Source: Escherichia phage KEP1
Sequence record: PP047755
Strand: one strand, 5' to 3'
DNA length: 64,000 nucleotides
Of this stretch, positions 12,081-55,636 are shown piece after piece. The stretch's first letter is position 1. Each line of letters opens with the position of its first letter. The notes under the pieces were generated by a model. That model was not told where the DNA came from. It was given only the letters and a program-made list of their open reading frames with translations, and did not search any database. The position numbers and the translations under genes are program-made.

Positions 12081-12581
12081 TCAAGCACAATTTGCTTTCA
12101 TTACCTTATGGATTCTTTTTTCAGCATCTTCATAAGTTTCTTTAGTAATAAACTTAATTGCTGCAATATTGGCATTGTAGAAGAGTCTGAGCTTAGAGTC
12201 AATCCTTTTTGTCATTACATCGAATTTATGTTGGAGGTTTGCTTCACCATAAACTAGGCCACCTTTCGTGTAGTAGGTTTGGATAATGTAAAAGTCAAAA
12301 AATTCTTTTCCAAAGCTCTCAATATCTTTTTTAACATACTCAGAAGAAGTCTCATAAGTCATCCAATCACTCTCCTTAGTGACTACCTTCTTCCGAGTCT
12401 TACCAGCAACTTTTCTTTTAGTCACACTATTAAGCTGTTTCTTACCCAAATAGTACTGTCCAGTCTTTTTGCAGTACACTAGGTAGACAAAACCAAAGTG
12501 CTTTGCTGGGTCAACTTCACCACATAGTGAAATCCAATGTCCATAAGTTGGACAACTCCCAAAACCTTTAACTTTAATCAT
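12081..12581 (-). CDS. hypothetical protein (weak GIY-YIG-like motif)
   Basis: 166 aa; FVYLVYCKKTGQYYLGKK loosely resembles GIY...YIG; not convincing. Confidence 0.4.
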   Translation of the reverse strand: MIKVKGFGSCPTYGHWISLCGEVDPAKHFGFVYLVYCKKTGQYYLGKKQLNSVTKRKVAGKTRKKVVTKESDWMTYETSSEYVKKDIESFGKEFFDFYIIQTYYTKGGLVYGEANLQHKFDVMTKRIDSKLRLFYNANIAAIKFITKETYEDAEKRIHKVMKANCA

Positions 12582-13102
12582 TCATAAGCTTCTCCGTGAT
12601 TTGTAAACTCTTTATGGAGTTCTTCTCTTTTCTTTTTGACAACTAATTCAGCCTCAGCGATAGAGTCAAATAAACCTAGATGATAGCAAACTTTATTATG
12701 CTTGACTTGTGCAGCCCATCTACCTCTTTGCTTATGGTAATATACACCCTTCACACCAGATTTATTATCTCTTCTTTTGGCTGCATTACAGTTATTGTCT
12801 GACCTACTACACTCTCTCAAATTGTCGAACCAGTTGTCGTGCCTGATACCATTCTTATGGTCAACAAATTTTGGTAGGTATCCTTTCATATACAAGAATG
12901 CCAGTCTGTGTGCTGCATATCTTTTCCCGAAGAGTTTTATGTAGATATAACCACTATGATGTTTAAGACCCGCTACTGAGCCAGCTTTGGCCTTACCTTT
13001 TCTATTAACTAACCAAGTAAAGACCCCTGTTTCGGGGTCATAGTGCAGGTATTCTTTAAGAGTTTGTTGGGTTAACATTTGGTGTCCATCCATACTTATC
13101 AA
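12578..13102 (-). CDS. HNH-type homing endonuclease with AP2-like DNA-binding domain
   Basis: 174 aa; paralogue of the CDS at 22942-23475 (shared HYDPETGVFTWL, HRLAFLY, KNGIRHDN, SGVKGVYY motifs). Confidence 0.75.
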   Translation of the reverse strand: MISMDGHQMLTQQTLKEYLHYDPETGVFTWLVNRKGKAKAGSVAGLKHHSGYIYIKLFGKRYAAHRLAFLYMKGYLPKFVDHKNGIRHDNWFDNLRECSRSDNNCNAAKRRDNKSGVKGVYYHKQRGRWAAQVKHNKVCYHLGLFDSIAEAELVVKKKREELHKEFTNHGEAYE

Positions 13103-19970: not shown

Positions 19971-22113
19971 ATGGAAAACGTAGATTTTAAAAACTTACAT
20001 TTAGTTGGTGATACAGAAACTGATGGTTTACTCCTTGAGTTCACTAAAGTGCACGTAATGGCTTTCGCAGACTATAAATCTGACGATGAAGAGCCACCTG
20101 TATGGGTCTTTACAGATGAGCCTATCCTCGGTCACAAGTATACCAAGTACATTAAGGGTGGTTTGCGTGAAGGTGTTGAGTTTGCGTTAAAGGCGAAACG
20201 TCTTTGCATCCATAATGGTCTCGGTTATGACTGGTGGGTTTTCAATCACATTGCACCTGATTTATGGAACTTTGATAATCCAAAGTGTAAACCGTGGAGT
20301 AATTTCTTTCAGGATTCTCTTATCCAGTCTCGTGTTCAGTGGATGGATAGGCCAACTCCAAAGGGTTATAAAGGTGCTCATGGCTTGGCTGCATGGGGTG
20401 CTCGTGTTGGTGTTCGTAAACCAGAGATTGAGCATTGGGGTGTATGGAATGCAGAAATCTTCACTCGTGTTGTAGAAGATATTCGTATTAACGCCAAAAC
20501 TAAACGGGCACTTGATAATGAGTATCTCAAGCTTAAGAAGTGTGGCATAGACACTTATGAAACCTATATGCGAGCTAAAGAAACATCTTTCTGGATGAGT
20601 CAACAAGCTATCAATGGTTGGAAAGCTGATAAAGAGCTTATGGAGTTTCATGTAAAGGAGCTTGACAAGTTGACTAATGAGCTTGCTTCAGAGGTTGAAC
20701 CACATCTACCTCCAACTATTAAGACCAAAGGTAAAGTCACTGGAGAAGAATTTGCAAAAGCTTGGAATGAGTATGTTGAAACATTTGGTCATGCAGATGG
20801 ACTGAAAAGAATTACCAAGTATCCTAAGACAAAGTATCGTCAACAGGTGCGTAACGGTGAGATGCAGACATACGAAATCAAGCCATTTGGTAAGCCAACT
20901 ACAAAGATTTTTAACATTGAAAAGAGAAATTGCTATACACCAACCAACTCTGTAACTGGTGAAGAGTACAAGGAAGGTTTTGTAGCAATGAAGGATGCTC
21001 GTGCAATTTGCAATGAGTTGAATGCAAAGATTGGTAAGAAGTGCAAAGACTGGAAGCCAGTAAAAACAGTTAAAACTGTGAAGTACTATAACAGCCATGT
21101 CGTTAACCACTTTGAGCTTGAGTCAAGTCGCTACACAGGTTTGATTGATGCACCATATACACCAATTGAGTTCGAAGTTTCTCGTATGACTCAGGTAGCA
21201 GTTGTTAAAGACTACTTGAAATCAGTTGGTTGGATTCCAGATGACTGGAACTATAAGAAAGACTCAGATGGCCGTCCTGTTAAGGTTTGTCGTTTCAAAG
21301 ACAACAAAAAGAGGATTACTAAGCACCCTAAATGGGATGAGATGGTTGAACGGTGTGGTTTGAGTTATGTTGAACATGAAGGTGTACAGTACATAGAGCA
21401 TAACTGGTCTGTTAAGAAATACACAGATTTGCTTGAACCTTGCTTAATCCGTACTTCACCAAAACTTACTGAATCATCTTATGATACGATTGAAGGTGAG
21501 CTTGGACAGAAGATTGCTAAGTACTATACTTTGATGCACAGACGTAGAACTATTGAGAACTCAAAGGATGATGAAAAAGGTTGGTTGAACCAGATTCGTC
21601 CTGATGGTCGCCTTAGTGCTGGCGCAATGGTGTTTGGTACTTCAACTGGACGTATGACACAATATGGTATTGTAAACGTACCGTCTGGTGCTGCTGTCTA
21701 TGGAGCACCTATGAGGGAGGTGTGGATTTGCGAGGAGGGGACTAATATCGTTTCAGTTGACCAGAACTCTGCACAGCTAGTTCTTCTTTGTAACTTTATG
21801 GGTGACAAAGACTTCACTAAAGCGGTAACTGAGGGTAAAGAGTCAGTAGAGTTCACTAAGCAAGATGACGGTAGATACTATTGCAAGCATCTCGATAAGT
21901 ATCTTAATCCAGAAACTGACAAGTATCTTCGTTATGATGCTGAGAACGACCTCTACGAAGTCTACACAGGGACTGATGCGCATACACTGAACAGTATTTA
22001 CTTTGGTCTGAACAAGGAAGAAGACATTGTTCGTTGTAGGGAGACACAGGATGAGGAACTTCTCCACGAGATTACAAAAGGTCGTAAGAAAGCCAAAAAT
22101 GGCATTTATGCGT
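19971..22113 (+). CDS. DNA polymerase (family A, T7 gp5-like), exon 1 (ORF-track frame 19941-22154 reads through into the intervening sequence)
   Basis: Start at MENVDF after GGGAG RBS; T7 gp5-like motifs HNGLGYDWW, AHGLAAWGARVG, motif A-like VSVDQNSAQL; coding sense ends in motif B at KAKNGIYA. Confidence 0.75.
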
Positions 22114-22381
22114 CAGTGGCGCATGTAAAACGTTGTGAATTGCTGGAAGCCTAAGTCTGTAAAGATATGGTAATCAGCAGCGAAGCCTCTTAAGAGGAAC
22201 GTTCAGAGACTATCGAAAAGCATACTTAACGTATGAACTGAGTAGAGTAGGGTGGTAAGCTAATGACCATTCCCAAGTGCAACGGTAGTATTACTACTAC
22301 GTGATATAGTCCGACACTCCGTAGAAATGCGGAGAAGTTCATAAGAGAACTGGTACACCTTGCGAGTGTATTGACCAGATG
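22114..22381 (+). other. Intervening sequence splitting the DNA polymerase gene; probable self-splicing (group-I-like) intron, boundaries approximate
   Basis: Exon 1 stops inside motif B; exon 2 resumes with LFGAGDEK in another frame; about 270 nt between, with stops in the exon frames; proposed junction follows a T (22113) and the intron ends on a G (22381), giving IYALLFGAGDEK. Confidence 0.5.
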
Positions 22382-22938
22382 TATTGTTCGGTGCAGGTGA
22401 TGAGAAGTTTGCAAAAACTATCAAGGCATCATCTACGGAAGAAGGTGCATTGACTAAACAAACTTACTATATGCGTCTGCCAAAGATTAAGAAGTTACTT
22501 GATAGCTTAGAAGCCGATTTTAAGGCGTCTAAAAAGGCTCTGGAAGAGGTTTTTGGGAAGAATTCTTCAATTGCTAAAGGTGGTTATATCAGGGTCGCTG
22601 GAGCATGGATATGGTGCAAATCTCCACATAAACTACTGAACTACCTCCTGATGAGTTCGGAAGCACAGATTCAGAATGAGGCCATCAACCTAGCAGCAAG
22701 AAAAGCCTGTGAAGATGGCCTGACAAAACTGAATGCTCGAAAACCAGCTATCGGAGCAAGGTTACTTCTGGCATATCACGATGAAAATAGTTGGGAATGT
22801 CCAGAGGGTATGACACATGATATGAAAGCAATTGCTGACTGGATGTATGGACAAGCTTCAAAAAACTTAGGTTTGAGGAAAGAAACACTTGTAACTGGTA
22901 CAGCAAAGGTTGGTAAGAGCTGGTATGAGGTACATTGA
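22382..22938 (+). CDS. DNA polymerase (family A), exon 2 / C-terminal part (motif B remainder and motif C)
   Basis: ORF track 22384-22938 starts at a TTG; LFGAGDEKFAKTI continues motif B; LLAYHDENSWECPEG matches the Pol A motif C HDE. Confidence 0.7.
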
Positions 22939-22941
22939 TTA

Positions 22942-23475
22942 ATGGATTTAATTTTACAAAAACGTTTAAAGGAGCTGCTGCACTATGACCCCGAAACAGG
23001 GGTCTTTACTTGGCTTCGTAGAGAAGGTAAATCAAGAGCTGTTAGTGTTTTTAACAGTAATTATGCAGGAAAGGTGGCAGGTAATATCCAGACTGATTCA
23101 AGTGGTCATAAACAGATTAGTATCTATTTTGACAAGAAAGCACATAAAGCACACAGACTCGCATGGCTTTACGTGTATGGCAAGATGCCAAAAGGTATCA
23201 TTGACCATATCAACGGAGACTCACTTGACAACAGGATTGTAAACTTAAGGGAAGCAGATGACTTTCAAAGTGCTTGGAATAAAGGTAAGCTAGTCACCAA
23301 TAAATCTGGGTACAAGGGTGTAAGTCTTAAGAAGAAGTCTGGTAAGTGGGTCGCACAGATAAGTTATAGAGGTAAGAAGATGTTTTTAGGTTATCATGAC
23401 ACACCTGAAGAAGCCCATAAAGCTTACTGTAAAGCTGCTGTGAAACTCCACGGAGAGTTTGCAAAACTAAGTTGA
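22942..23475 (+). CDS. HNH-type homing endonuclease with AP2-like domain (free-standing, immediately downstream of the DNA polymerase)
   Basis: 177 aa; paralogue of 12578-13102; His/Asn pattern DHINGDSLDNRIVNLRE. Confidence 0.75.
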   Translation: MDLILQKRLKELLHYDPETGVFTWLRREGKSRAVSVFNSNYAGKVAGNIQTDSSGHKQISIYFDKKAHKAHRLAWLYVYGKMPKGIIDHINGDSLDNRIVNLREADDFQSAWNKGKLVTNKSGYKGVSLKKKSGKWVAQISYRGKKMFLGYHDTPEEAHKAYCKAAVKLHGEFAKLS

Positions 23476-54273: not shown

Positions 54274-54350
54274 TGGAGAATCCGAAGGGACTCGAACCCT
54301 TATAAACCTGTTTTGCAGACAGGCACATAGCCATTTCTGTCACGGATTCA
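54274..54350 (-). tRNA. tRNA-Cys (anticodon GCA), boundaries +/-3 nt
   Basis: Cloverleaf by eye: T-arm rc AAGGG-ACTCGAA-CCCTT, anticodon stem CCTGT/ACAGG, loop CUGCAAA, 7-bp acceptor, CCA encoded. Confidence 0.65.
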
Positions 54351-54353
54351 AAT

Positions 54354-54443
54354 TGGAGGAAGATACCAGACTTGAACTGGTACACCGATTTCTCAGCTAC
54401 TGGCAGTTTAGCAAACTGCTCCCTTACCTTTTAGGGTTAATCT
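54354..54443 (-). tRNA. tRNA-Ser (anticodon GCU), type II, about 90 nt
   Basis: Acceptor GGAAGAT/ATCTTCC, anticodon stem GCAGT/ACTGC, loop UUGCUAA, long variable arm, CCA encoded. Confidence 0.65.
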
Positions 54444-54448
54444 TCCAT

Positions 54449-55246
54449 TTATTTCTGTAATGCGTTCTTCATTTCTGGTGTTGCAATAGTGTCAATTACA
54501 CCAGTTTTACAAGCATCATCAAACCAGTCTGGTAAGATACCTGCTAAGAACCCATTGATATTCGTTTTAAGGTACTCTGCAATAAGGGCAGCTTCTTCTT
54601 CAATCATCTGCACAACTTCATCTGCATAAGCTGTAATCTTTGAGATACCTTCATTAATCTTACTAACAGCTTGGTTAGCTAAATCAGAAATAGTATCAAG
54701 ACCTTTATCAATAGCATCCTGTAAGTCACTTAATACATCATTAACACCGTCTAGTGCACTGTTAATCGTATCAATAGCTTTTTGACCATACTCTGTAGCA
54801 ACACCCATAATACCACTAAATGGTGTACAACCGACTTGCTCTCCTGCTGCACCCATAACATTGGAATATCCTTTTGCTACCTGCATACGTGATGAAAACT
54901 CATCAATGGACTTTTGACCGTAATCTGTCAGTGTCTTAGTAGTTGATGTAGTGCTTGTCAGACTCGTTGTAAAGCTGTTAAGCAGAACTGTTGTAAGTCC
55001 AGCAGCAATAAGCTTATCCTTTATTGTAGGGTCTGTTACAGAGCTAATAGAGCTTACAAGTGATGTAGAGGCAGCTACGGTTCCACCGAGAACTGCTGCA
55101 CCAGTAATAAGGGGATTAGAAAACCCTCTACCGGTTTTTAAGAGATTAAAAATCTCCTTACCTTGTTCTGTCATCTCTTTCATTAAGCACCTTTGAAATT
55201 GGTAGTCCAGTGGGATTTGAACCCTCTTCTCATGTTTTTCAGACAC
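54449..55246 (-). CDS. hypothetical protein inside tRNA cluster (Thr/Ser-rich, hydrophobic segment)
   Basis: 265-aa ORF between tRNA genes, co-oriented; ORF-track start may overlap the tRNA-Phe 3' end. Confidence 0.5.
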   Translation of the reverse strand: MSEKHEKRVQIPLDYQFQRCLMKEMTEQGKEIFNLLKTGRGFSNPLITGAAVLGGTVAASTSLVSSISSVTDPTIKDKLIAAGLTTVLLNSFTTSLTSTTSTTKTLTDYGQKSIDEFSSRMQVAKGYSNVMGAAGEQVGCTPFSGIMGVATEYGQKAIDTINSALDGVNDVLSDLQDAIDKGLDTISDLANQAVSKINEGISKITAYADEVVQMIEEEAALIAEYLKTNINGFLAGILPDWFDDACKTGVIDTIATPEMKNALQK

Positions 55247-55276
55247 GCGCTTTAACCATATAAGCTACTTGGACTA
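55200..55276 (-). tRNA. tRNA-Phe (anticodon GAA)
   Basis: Acceptor TAGTCCA/TGGACTA, anticodon stem CGTGT/ACATG, loop CUGAAAA. Confidence 0.6.
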
Positions 55277-55281
55277 TAAAT

Positions 55282-55357
55282 TGGGGTGACCTACGGGATT
55301 TGAACCCGTATAGACCATGTTCACAGCATGGGTCATTACCATTTATGATAAGGCCAC
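55282..55357 (-). tRNA. tRNA-His (anticodon GUG)
   Basis: T-arm ACGGG-ATTTGAA-CCCGT (rc), anticodon stem CCATG/CATGG, loop CUGUGAA. Confidence 0.6.
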
Positions 55358-55388
55358 ATTTAAGGACTCTCGTAAGAACCCTTAGAAG

Positions 55389-55464
55389 TGGCAGCGGCAT
55401 AAGGATTTGAACCTTAATAAGACAGCTTCAGAGACTGCTGCATTGCCAGTTATGCTATACCGCT
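55389..55464 (-). tRNA. tRNA-Gln (anticodon CUG), tentative
   Basis: Acceptor and T-arm clear; anticodon loop CUCUGAA with G-U containing stem. Confidence 0.45.
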
Positions 55465-55469
55465 AAATT

Positions 55470-55558
55470 TGGTACTCCATATCGGATTCGAACCGATACA
55501 TAACACAGATTTTAAGTCTGGCCTCTCTGCCAATTGGAGTAATGGAGCATTGGCGGGG
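55470..55558 (-). tRNA. tRNA-Leu (anticodon UAA), type II, about 86 nt
   Basis: T-arm ATCGG-ATTCGAA-CCGAT (rc), anticodon loop CUUAAAA, long variable arm. Confidence 0.55.
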
Positions 55559-55560
55559 GA

Positions 55561-55636
55561 TGTTGGAATTGAACCAACTTCTTCGATTTCAAAGACCGAG
55601 GTTTTAACCTTGTAAACTAATCCCCTTTAAATCTTT
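55561..55636 (-). tRNA. tRNA-Gln (anticodon UUG)
   Basis: T-arm GTTGG-AATTGAA-CCAAC (rc), anticodon stem TCGGT/ATCGA, loop CUUUGAA. Confidence 0.55.

Follow-up and report, generated by a model that had tools for sequence, protein, structure and literature searches.

A predicted 268-nt group I intron interrupting the DNA polymerase gene of Escherichia phage KEP1, and its variant forms among Felixounaviruses

Felixounaviruses, the Felix O1-like myoviruses that infect E. coli and Salmonella, are a large and easily grown group of phages used in biocontrol, and an intron in their DNA polymerase gene has been noted before. Here we analyze a stretch of 64,000 nucleotides (nt) from Escherichia phage KEP1 (sequence record PP047755; hereafter the window), in which a family-A DNA polymerase gene at 19971-22938 on the plus strand is broken inside motif B by 268 nt, at 22114-22381. 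We consider it very probable that these 268 nt are a group I intron that interrupts the polymerase and was recently mobile in the Felixounavirus population, with a splicing mechanism inferred from the intron family. The 3.6 kilobases surrounding the interrupted gene are 95-97% identical to dozens of Felixounavirus genomes, and over the 501 nt that surround the junction the identity to Salmonella phage vB_Si_35FD is 99.8%; by these identities the source of the window is a Felixounavirus. The finding is sound but ordinary, one more copy of an intron that earlier work had noted in this genus, and the biological gain is small, group I introns in phage family-A polymerase genes being a textbook case.

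The intron of Salmonella phage Meda (MH586731), whose genome announcement (2019) described an intron without an HNH gene in the DNA polymerase gene, is in fact the same element, and the polymerase coding sequence (CDS) of that record is annotated as a join. Fang et al. 2018 (PMC6083498) listed the Endonuclease VII-motif proteins of phages JH2, EC6 and FSL SP-010 as intron-encoded, and the introns of these four phages show no essential difference from the one in the window. The intron endonuclease was elsewhere read as an "integration and excision endonuclease VII" in mismatch repair (PMC8300805), and the paper on phage SPJ41 (PMC9951933) listed "two introns" with no further detail. The Felix O1 genome paper reported, correctly for that phage, no introns. 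The intron is thus already known in near-identical phages, while its class, structure, frequency and splicing are undescribed in the literature examined. In GenBank, nearly all records list the interrupted polymerase as two "DNA polymerase" CDSs; the correct annotation for most of the roughly 95 intron-bearing genomes would be a joined CDS with an intron feature.

Outside this genus, the polymerase intron of phage LUZ24 also lies in motif B of a family-A polymerase, is associated with an Endonuclease VII-type gene and has similar P7 and J8/7 sequences, but it belongs to another phage family, uses another P1 guide sequence and sits 6 nt upstream, following the first base of the codon that corresponds to T7 Y526 (KTFI-Y^AFIYGAGD). 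Phage KarlSchell (Bas89) likewise has an intron in motif B of a family-A polymerase, with a P3-P5 core 85% identical over 53 nt and a CDS annotated as a join with an intron open reading frame (ORF); this intron, however, is inserted 6 nt downstream, in the Y530-equivalent codon (FIYAFN-Y^GAGD), and its ORF of 174 amino acids (aa) has no Pfam match. Three lineages, LUZ24 (locus L035, 19120-19810), Bas89 (L022, 2440-3260) and the window (22113/22382), carry group I introns in O-helix codons, each inserted after base 1 of the codon and 6 nt apart, at the equivalents of T7 Y526, F528 and Y530. Introns are also cited for the T7-like phages PhiI, W31 and K1F (PMC6083498, PMC3984707), which resemble the present case in that a small intron interrupts a T7-type polymerase of an enterobacterial phage. 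The K1F intron, however, lies in motif C, between AWVH and DE, so that a shared insertion site with the T7-like introns was rejected; its endonuclease is of the HNH rather than the Endonuclease VII type. Bonocora and Shub (2004 and 2009) are said to have placed the T7-like phage intron in subgroup IA2, with an endonuclease ORF in P6a.

The interrupted polymerase gene and its predicted intron

The polymerase starts at ATG 19971, which is preceded by the ribosome-binding site AGGGAG and is the start of the same CDS in GenBank relatives. The plus-strand ORF that contains it (19941/19971-22154) reads ...KGRKKAKNGIYA, followed by 13 unrelated codons and a stop at 22152-22154. A second plus-strand ORF in a different frame, 22384-22938, opens with the remainder of motif B, (L)FGAGDEK, and includes AYHDE; its TTG "start" at 22384 has no Shine-Dalgarno sequence. 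The frame changes between the exons because 268 leaves a remainder of 1 when divided by 3, and 22114-22381 holds 6-8 stop codons in each frame. The gene is divided as follows:

19971-22113, plus strand: exon 1, 714 codons and base 1 of codon 715, ending ...KAKNGIYA + T
22114-22381, plus strand: predicted group I intron, 268 nt, no ORF; matches RF00028, and the same 268 nt are missing in intronless relatives
22382-22938, plus strand: exon 2, in which UA finishes codon 715, then LFGAGDEK ... AYHDE ... and stop TGA

Joining T22113 to T22382 yields an ORF of 2700 nt that encodes 899 aa from ATG 19971, with the product sequence GIYALLFGAGDEK, and the Pfam family PF00476 (DNA_pol_A) matches in the C-terminal part of the polymerase. 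The joined protein aligns with residues 517-621 of T7 gp5 without a gap across the junction, K709 corresponding to K522, Y713 to Y526 and L715 to F528, so that the junction codon, L715, falls inside the O-helix (motif B), two residues past the Y526 equivalent. The spliced polymerase would have a predicted mass of about 102 kDa and would span IYALLFGAGDEK.

The boundaries of the element are settled by 19 intronless relatives with an identical peptide. In Felix O1 and 14 IMG/VR contigs the uninterrupted gene reads NGIYALLFGAGDEK, and four more intronless GenBank phages (Z31, bumzen, AN17P8 and DaR-2019b) are also continuous at the site; the window and the other intron-bearing genomes give this peptide only when the intron, exactly 268 nt in the form found in the window, is removed, and uninterrupted homologues are shorter by exactly 268 nt at the insertion point. 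The initial annotation, made from the letters of the window, had proposed an interruption of about 270 nt inside motif B, exons in different frames, a start at ATG 19971, and boundaries after T22113 and G22381 that would, on splicing, restore the spacing of the T7 motif; each of these proposals is supported, the boundaries to the base. Our comparison of relatives covered 36 sampled loci (numbered with the prefix L), and GE_vB_NS7 (L025), an unverified record with many indels, was excluded from the counts. In the GenBank phage set, 96 records span the whole 501-nt junction query, and intronless records give a two-piece match spanning 233 nt, not 501. Intron carriers amount to about 95 of about 300 Ounavirinae records, or about a third, and all of them are E. 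coli or Salmonella Felixounaviruses with the intron at the same insertion site and at 96-99.8% identity; about 95 isolated, viable phages, then, have the intron inside the essential polymerase gene.

As for the class of the element, which the initial annotation had taken to be group I-like without being able to fold the core, a search with the Rfam model RF00028 (Intron_gpI) gave a match at 22051-22334 with 64.2 bits, against a gathering score of 50 bits, full-length over model positions 1-253; the E-value is 6e-16 in the region and, with the whole window searched, 5.5e-14, so that the match is not due to chance. The 5' end of the Rfam alignment (model P1/P2) runs into the exon and was disregarded, and the "P2" of that alignment was rejected as an artefact, being aligned to exon upstream of the 5' splice site. 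All the core helices could be drawn in a hand model guided by the Rfam alignment, and the variation among relatives respects the pairs. On the plus strand, the predicted elements are:

22108-22124, plus strand: P1 hairpin, exon AUGCGU (22108-22113) with internal guide GCGCAU (22119-22124); also in the RNAfold centroid
22131-22313, plus strand: ribozyme core overall, P3-P8
22131-37/22278-84, plus strand: P3, hand model
22140-46/22174-80, plus strand: P4, hand model
22149-51/22169-71, plus strand: P5, hand model
22155-58/22163-66, plus strand: P5a with a GUAA loop, hand model
22181-82/22200-01, plus strand: P6, hand model
22186-89/22194-97, plus strand: P6a, a short hairpin, hand model
22204-12/22307-13, plus strand: P7, GACUA/UAGUC, hand model
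22221-25/22231-35, plus strand: P7.1, between P7 and P3', hand model
22250-56/22266-74, plus strand: P7.2, between P7 and P3', hand model
22285-90/22295-300, plus strand: P8, hand model
22317-22381, plus strand: 3' peripheral domain overall, P9, P9.1, P9.2 and the terminal G
22317-23/22328-34, plus strand: P9 with a GAAA loop, the end of the Rfam match (22334)
22336-40/22347-51, plus strand: P9.1, hand model only, beyond the Rfam match
22352-58/22366-76, plus strand: P9.2, hand model only, beyond the Rfam match

P1 has a U22113·G22119 wobble at the 5' splice site, unchanged in 11 variants; the last nucleotide of the intron is G22381, and the P1 loop CAGUG (22114-22118) can pair with exon 2 UAUUG (22382-22386) to form a P10 of 5 base pairs (bp), including 2 G·U. 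All the P1 and P10 pairs (6+5) are kept in the 11 distinct variants. The U·G wobble, the terminal G and P10 coincide exactly with the boundaries at which the frame is restored, which supports the identity of the element; as far as its sequence can tell, it is a group I intron.

The rest of the model is compatible with this identity. P7 consists of GACUA 22208-12 paired with UAGUC 22307-11, plus G22206-C22312 and C22204-G22313, and forms a pseudoknot crossing P3; its pairs are invariant among the variants, and support for P7 comes from sequence only. When the 82 modelled pairs were followed through the 11 distinct variants, all 902 of 902 cells held standard pairs, with a compensatory C-G to U-A exchange (in either direction) at one pair in P6a and one in P8 and a change to a wobble at two further pairs; sliding the pairing partners as a control lowered the paired cells to 26-44%. 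About 13 of about 19 variable intron columns lie in loops, and the L5 loop is always GNRA (GUAA, GGAA or GAGA). The RNAfold centroid recovered eight of the helices of the model, and P7.1/P7.2 and P9.1/P9.2 can be drawn, are present in that centroid and are compatible with the observed variation. In the scheme of Michel and Westhof, subgroup IA, which is common in phages, is laid out with extra P7.1/P7.2 between P7 and P3', plus P9.1/P9.2. The intron looks like a member of this subgroup (IA2-like) in our model.

Several points nonetheless weigh against the structure and the assignment as given. The variants are about 98% identical, which makes covariation statistics weak, and the structure was drawn from the sequence of the window, which inflates the figure of 100% paired; for these two reasons the variants show consistency rather than strong covariation. 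The minimum-free-energy folding is unremarkable by itself (z = -1.37), and thermodynamic folding, being uninformative at that value, was dropped as evidence for an intron. A P2 was sought in the intron by hand modelling and none was found, and the subgroup was read by eye from P7.1/P7.2 and the lack of P2. Lastly, the 268-nt form may predate the endonuclease gene that sister copies carry, or it may have arisen by its deletion.

By analogy with the group I family, the RNA would fold after transcription, P1 would present U22113·G22119, and an external guanosine would attack the 5' splice site; the terminal G22381 would next enter the guanosine site in P7, and P10 would align exon 2, leading to joined exons and a single messenger RNA for the 899-aa polymerase. 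As a side observation, a related group I intron (RF00028, 91.8 bits) splits the RNA polymerase gene of the N4-like Escherichia phage vB_EcoP-ZQ2 (L023, 460-703). The RNA polymerase is annotated there as two CDSs, an HNH gene follows the ribozyme core, and P3-P7 resembles that of the intron in the window.

Intron forms and probable traces of homing

The intron occurs in three forms. The form in the window, of 268 nt, has the short P6a hairpin and no homing endonuclease gene inside. In JH2, VSe11 and S.Kent, a form of 802-805 nt carries a 160-aa Endonuclease_7 (PF02945) ORF in an extended P6a stem, and the endonuclease in the P6a loop of these sister copies is a homing endonuclease of the Endonuclease VII type (DHHRN). 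The JH2 enzyme is 51% identical (E 2e-42) to that of the LUZ24 polymerase intron. The third form, of 311 nt in phage warpig (L024, 2571-2881), holds the upstream region of the ORF and its last codons, and is a deletion remnant since those codons are retained; Mushroom, NJ12 and Shigella phage Tf have this form too, and the record of warpig labels the remnant a 44-aa "hypothetical protein". By extrapolation from a sample of 60 rows, the 268-nt form would account for about 49 records, the endonuclease-carrying form for about 37 and the remnant for about 9. The endonuclease-carrying introns of JH2, Bas89 and K1F gave no Rfam match at threshold, an outcome to be expected given the large ORF inside.

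Presence or absence of the intron is polymorphic at one site, and the flanking exons bear signs of co-conversion. The introns of the window and JH2 share 97-99% identity, whereas the exons next to them share only about 77%. Two haplotypes, about 76% identical, exist for the last third of the polymerase, and the flanks of the intron, for about 30 nt on either side, track the intron, not the surrounding haplotype: the flanks of that length in the window resemble the other haplotype, and intronless genomes of the window's haplotype differ from it, around the site, in those 60 nt only. A near-identical intron in diverged exons, with about 30 nt of foreign flank on either side, speaks for recent homing with short co-conversion tracts, and the sequences thus indicate that the intron has homed at the DNA level. 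It would then be, or lately have been, a mobile DNA element in the Felixounavirus population. The copy in the window, having no endonuclease gene, could spread only by recombination or with a nuclease supplied in trans, and such a nuclease might come from a co-infecting intron with an endonuclease gene or possibly from the HNH-AP2 gene that adjoins the polymerase downstream.

On a larger scale, the haplotype region begins about 300 nt ahead of the intron site and runs through to the stop codon (window 21800-22938 compared with L001-L034) and is about 76% identical, and the 900 nt upstream of it in the same genomes are mostly 89-99% identical, or 81-87% in three more divergent loci. Additional breakpoints occur close to the intron site and, in exon 2, after about 250 nt. 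By these comparisons, a recombination hot spot seems to cover the 3' third of the gene.

The downstream HNH-AP2 gene

The gene that follows the polymerase is:

22942-23475, plus strand: free-standing HNH-AP2 homing-endonuclease-like gene, 177 aa, 3 nt past the polymerase stop

Its product matches PF13392 HNH_3 (9e-15), PF00847 AP2 (3e-11) and phrog_99 HNH endonuclease (1e-70). In relatives, the slot after the polymerase either has no gene or is filled by an HNH_3+AP2 gene, of which there are at least five types, namely the type of the window, an 85% variant and three types only 39-52% identical; this comparison included L002, L007, L008, L014, L018, L020, L021, L024, L029 and L030. Some of the HNH genes in the slot overlap the polymerase stop, and where the HNH is of the Felix O1 type, DNA identity over the final 300 nt of the polymerase drops to 57-63%. 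Phage T3 likewise has a free-standing HNH gene, 5.3, directly downstream of the polymerase. Orthology of the two genes was rejected, as only the HNH core is common to them.

An ORF-less intron next to a free-standing endonuclease gene brings to mind collaborative homing (PMC3984707, PMC10448857, PMC6083498), for which the psbA intron of cyanophage S-PM2 and the nuclease F-CphI are an example, cleavage of the intronless allele by this nuclease at the site of insertion having been demonstrated. Applied to KEP1, this would mean that HNH-AP2 cuts intronless alleles at or near the motif-B site, that the intron protects its own genome, and that intron, exon 2 and HNH gene travel together, a proposal that concerns the movement of the intron and not its identity, and that our comparative analysis leaves rather unlikely. 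Beyond the layout itself, HNH-AP2 directly follows the polymerase in 7 of 7 ORF-less loci and is lacking in 2 of 3 endonuclease-carrying ones, but the window-type HNH is also found in 5 of the intronless genomes examined and in about 11 GenBank records, and HNH types B and C, only 47% identical to that of the window, accompany ORF-less introns as well. Each of the 9 loci whose HNH is of the window type (at least 94% aa identity) either contains the intron or departs from the majority sequence at motif B; the unusual motif B of the intronless carriers, however, is the native sequence of their haplotype, shared with Felix O1 and L018, which have other HNH types, and the 85%-identical HNH adjoins the majority motif-B sequence in L034. 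For the same reason we rejected the idea that motif B is "recoded" to resist the nuclease in intronless genomes with the window-type HNH, the divergence of that sequence (about 77%) being in line with the haplotype as a whole. In L001, L004 and L005 identity to the window jumps at the insertion site, from about 92% to about 99%, which would fit joint transfer, but the loci are not phylogenetically independent, and T3 gp5.3 offers little parallel, since a pairwise comparison with HNH-AP2 aligns just the HNH core (E 0.005). When HNH type is set against intron state, every combination occurs, except that the 7 ORF-less loci examined all have some HNH. Compared with S-PM2, then, the pair in the window shows adjacency only, and the comparative data are ambiguous on the target of HNH-AP2.

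Extended to the whole population, the same proposal would have the 3' end of the polymerase hold one intron in all the stages of a homing cycle (empty site, endonuclease-carrying, deletion remnant and ORF-less), the ORF-less intron being kept as a shield for motif B, with at least four HNH-AP2 genes, ranging from unrelated to 47% identical, competing for the slot 560 bp downstream. We regard this picture as doubtful; were it true, it would be a natural and tractable case in growable coliphages and Salmonella phages. These phages can be grown, and they carry three intron forms next to several endonuclease genes in competition, so mixed infections would offer a direct measure of how the intron is gained, lost and mobilised in trans.

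Alternatives to efficient splicing, and other features of the window

Returning to the group I intron itself, one might ask whether it has decayed, so that it would splice inefficiently, or only with a host or phage protein as cofactor, and act as a brake on polymerase production. With no endonuclease gene inside, selection for mobility would be relaxed, the folding energy is unexceptional, and ribosomes coming from exon 1 would traverse the strands of P1-P5 before reaching the stop at 22152-22154; yet all the core pairs are intact, the substitutions either fall in loops or are matched by a compensating change, and the 268-nt form is found in an essential polymerase in dozens of lytic phages that were isolated independently, all of which makes decay quite improbable.

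Still less probable, in our estimate, is a gene in pieces, that is, two separately translated ORFs giving a two-subunit polymerase, with the intervening RNA kept. Phage polymerases and reductases split by endonuclease genes do exist (a split ribonucleotide reductase is cited in PMC3322345), and most GenBank records show two "DNA polymerase" CDSs; the break, however, falls in the middle of the O-helix, just past the Y526 equivalent, the TTG start of the second ORF is a product of the ORF caller, the spacer is a ribozyme that passes the Rfam threshold and whose boundaries restore the frame to the base, and the Meda record already joins both parts. The initial annotation had judged a frameshift or a two-subunit arrangement less likely, and the stops in all frames, the lack of a ribosome-binding site at the second ORF and the identical peptide of intronless relatives bear this out. 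Translational bypass in T4 gene 60 covers 50 nt. Programmed frameshifting or bypass was ruled out here by the gap of 268 nt, its 6-8 stops per frame and the ribozyme fold, and an intein by a length that is not a multiple of 3 and by stops in every frame.

The "two introns" reported for SPJ41 (PMC9951933) led us to look for a second intron, and none was found in the window, where Rfam at gathering thresholds returned this intron and 24 transfer RNAs (tRNAs) only. Two other parts of the window are worth recording:

12081-13102, minus strand: two neighbouring free-standing homing-endonuclease-like genes, one SegE-type GIY-YIG (PF19835, 9.5e-27) and the other a second HNH_3+AP2 protein
54277-59864, minus strand: 24 tRNA genes in an array, with small ORFs in between (DUF7217, DUF7338), typical of Felix O1-like phages

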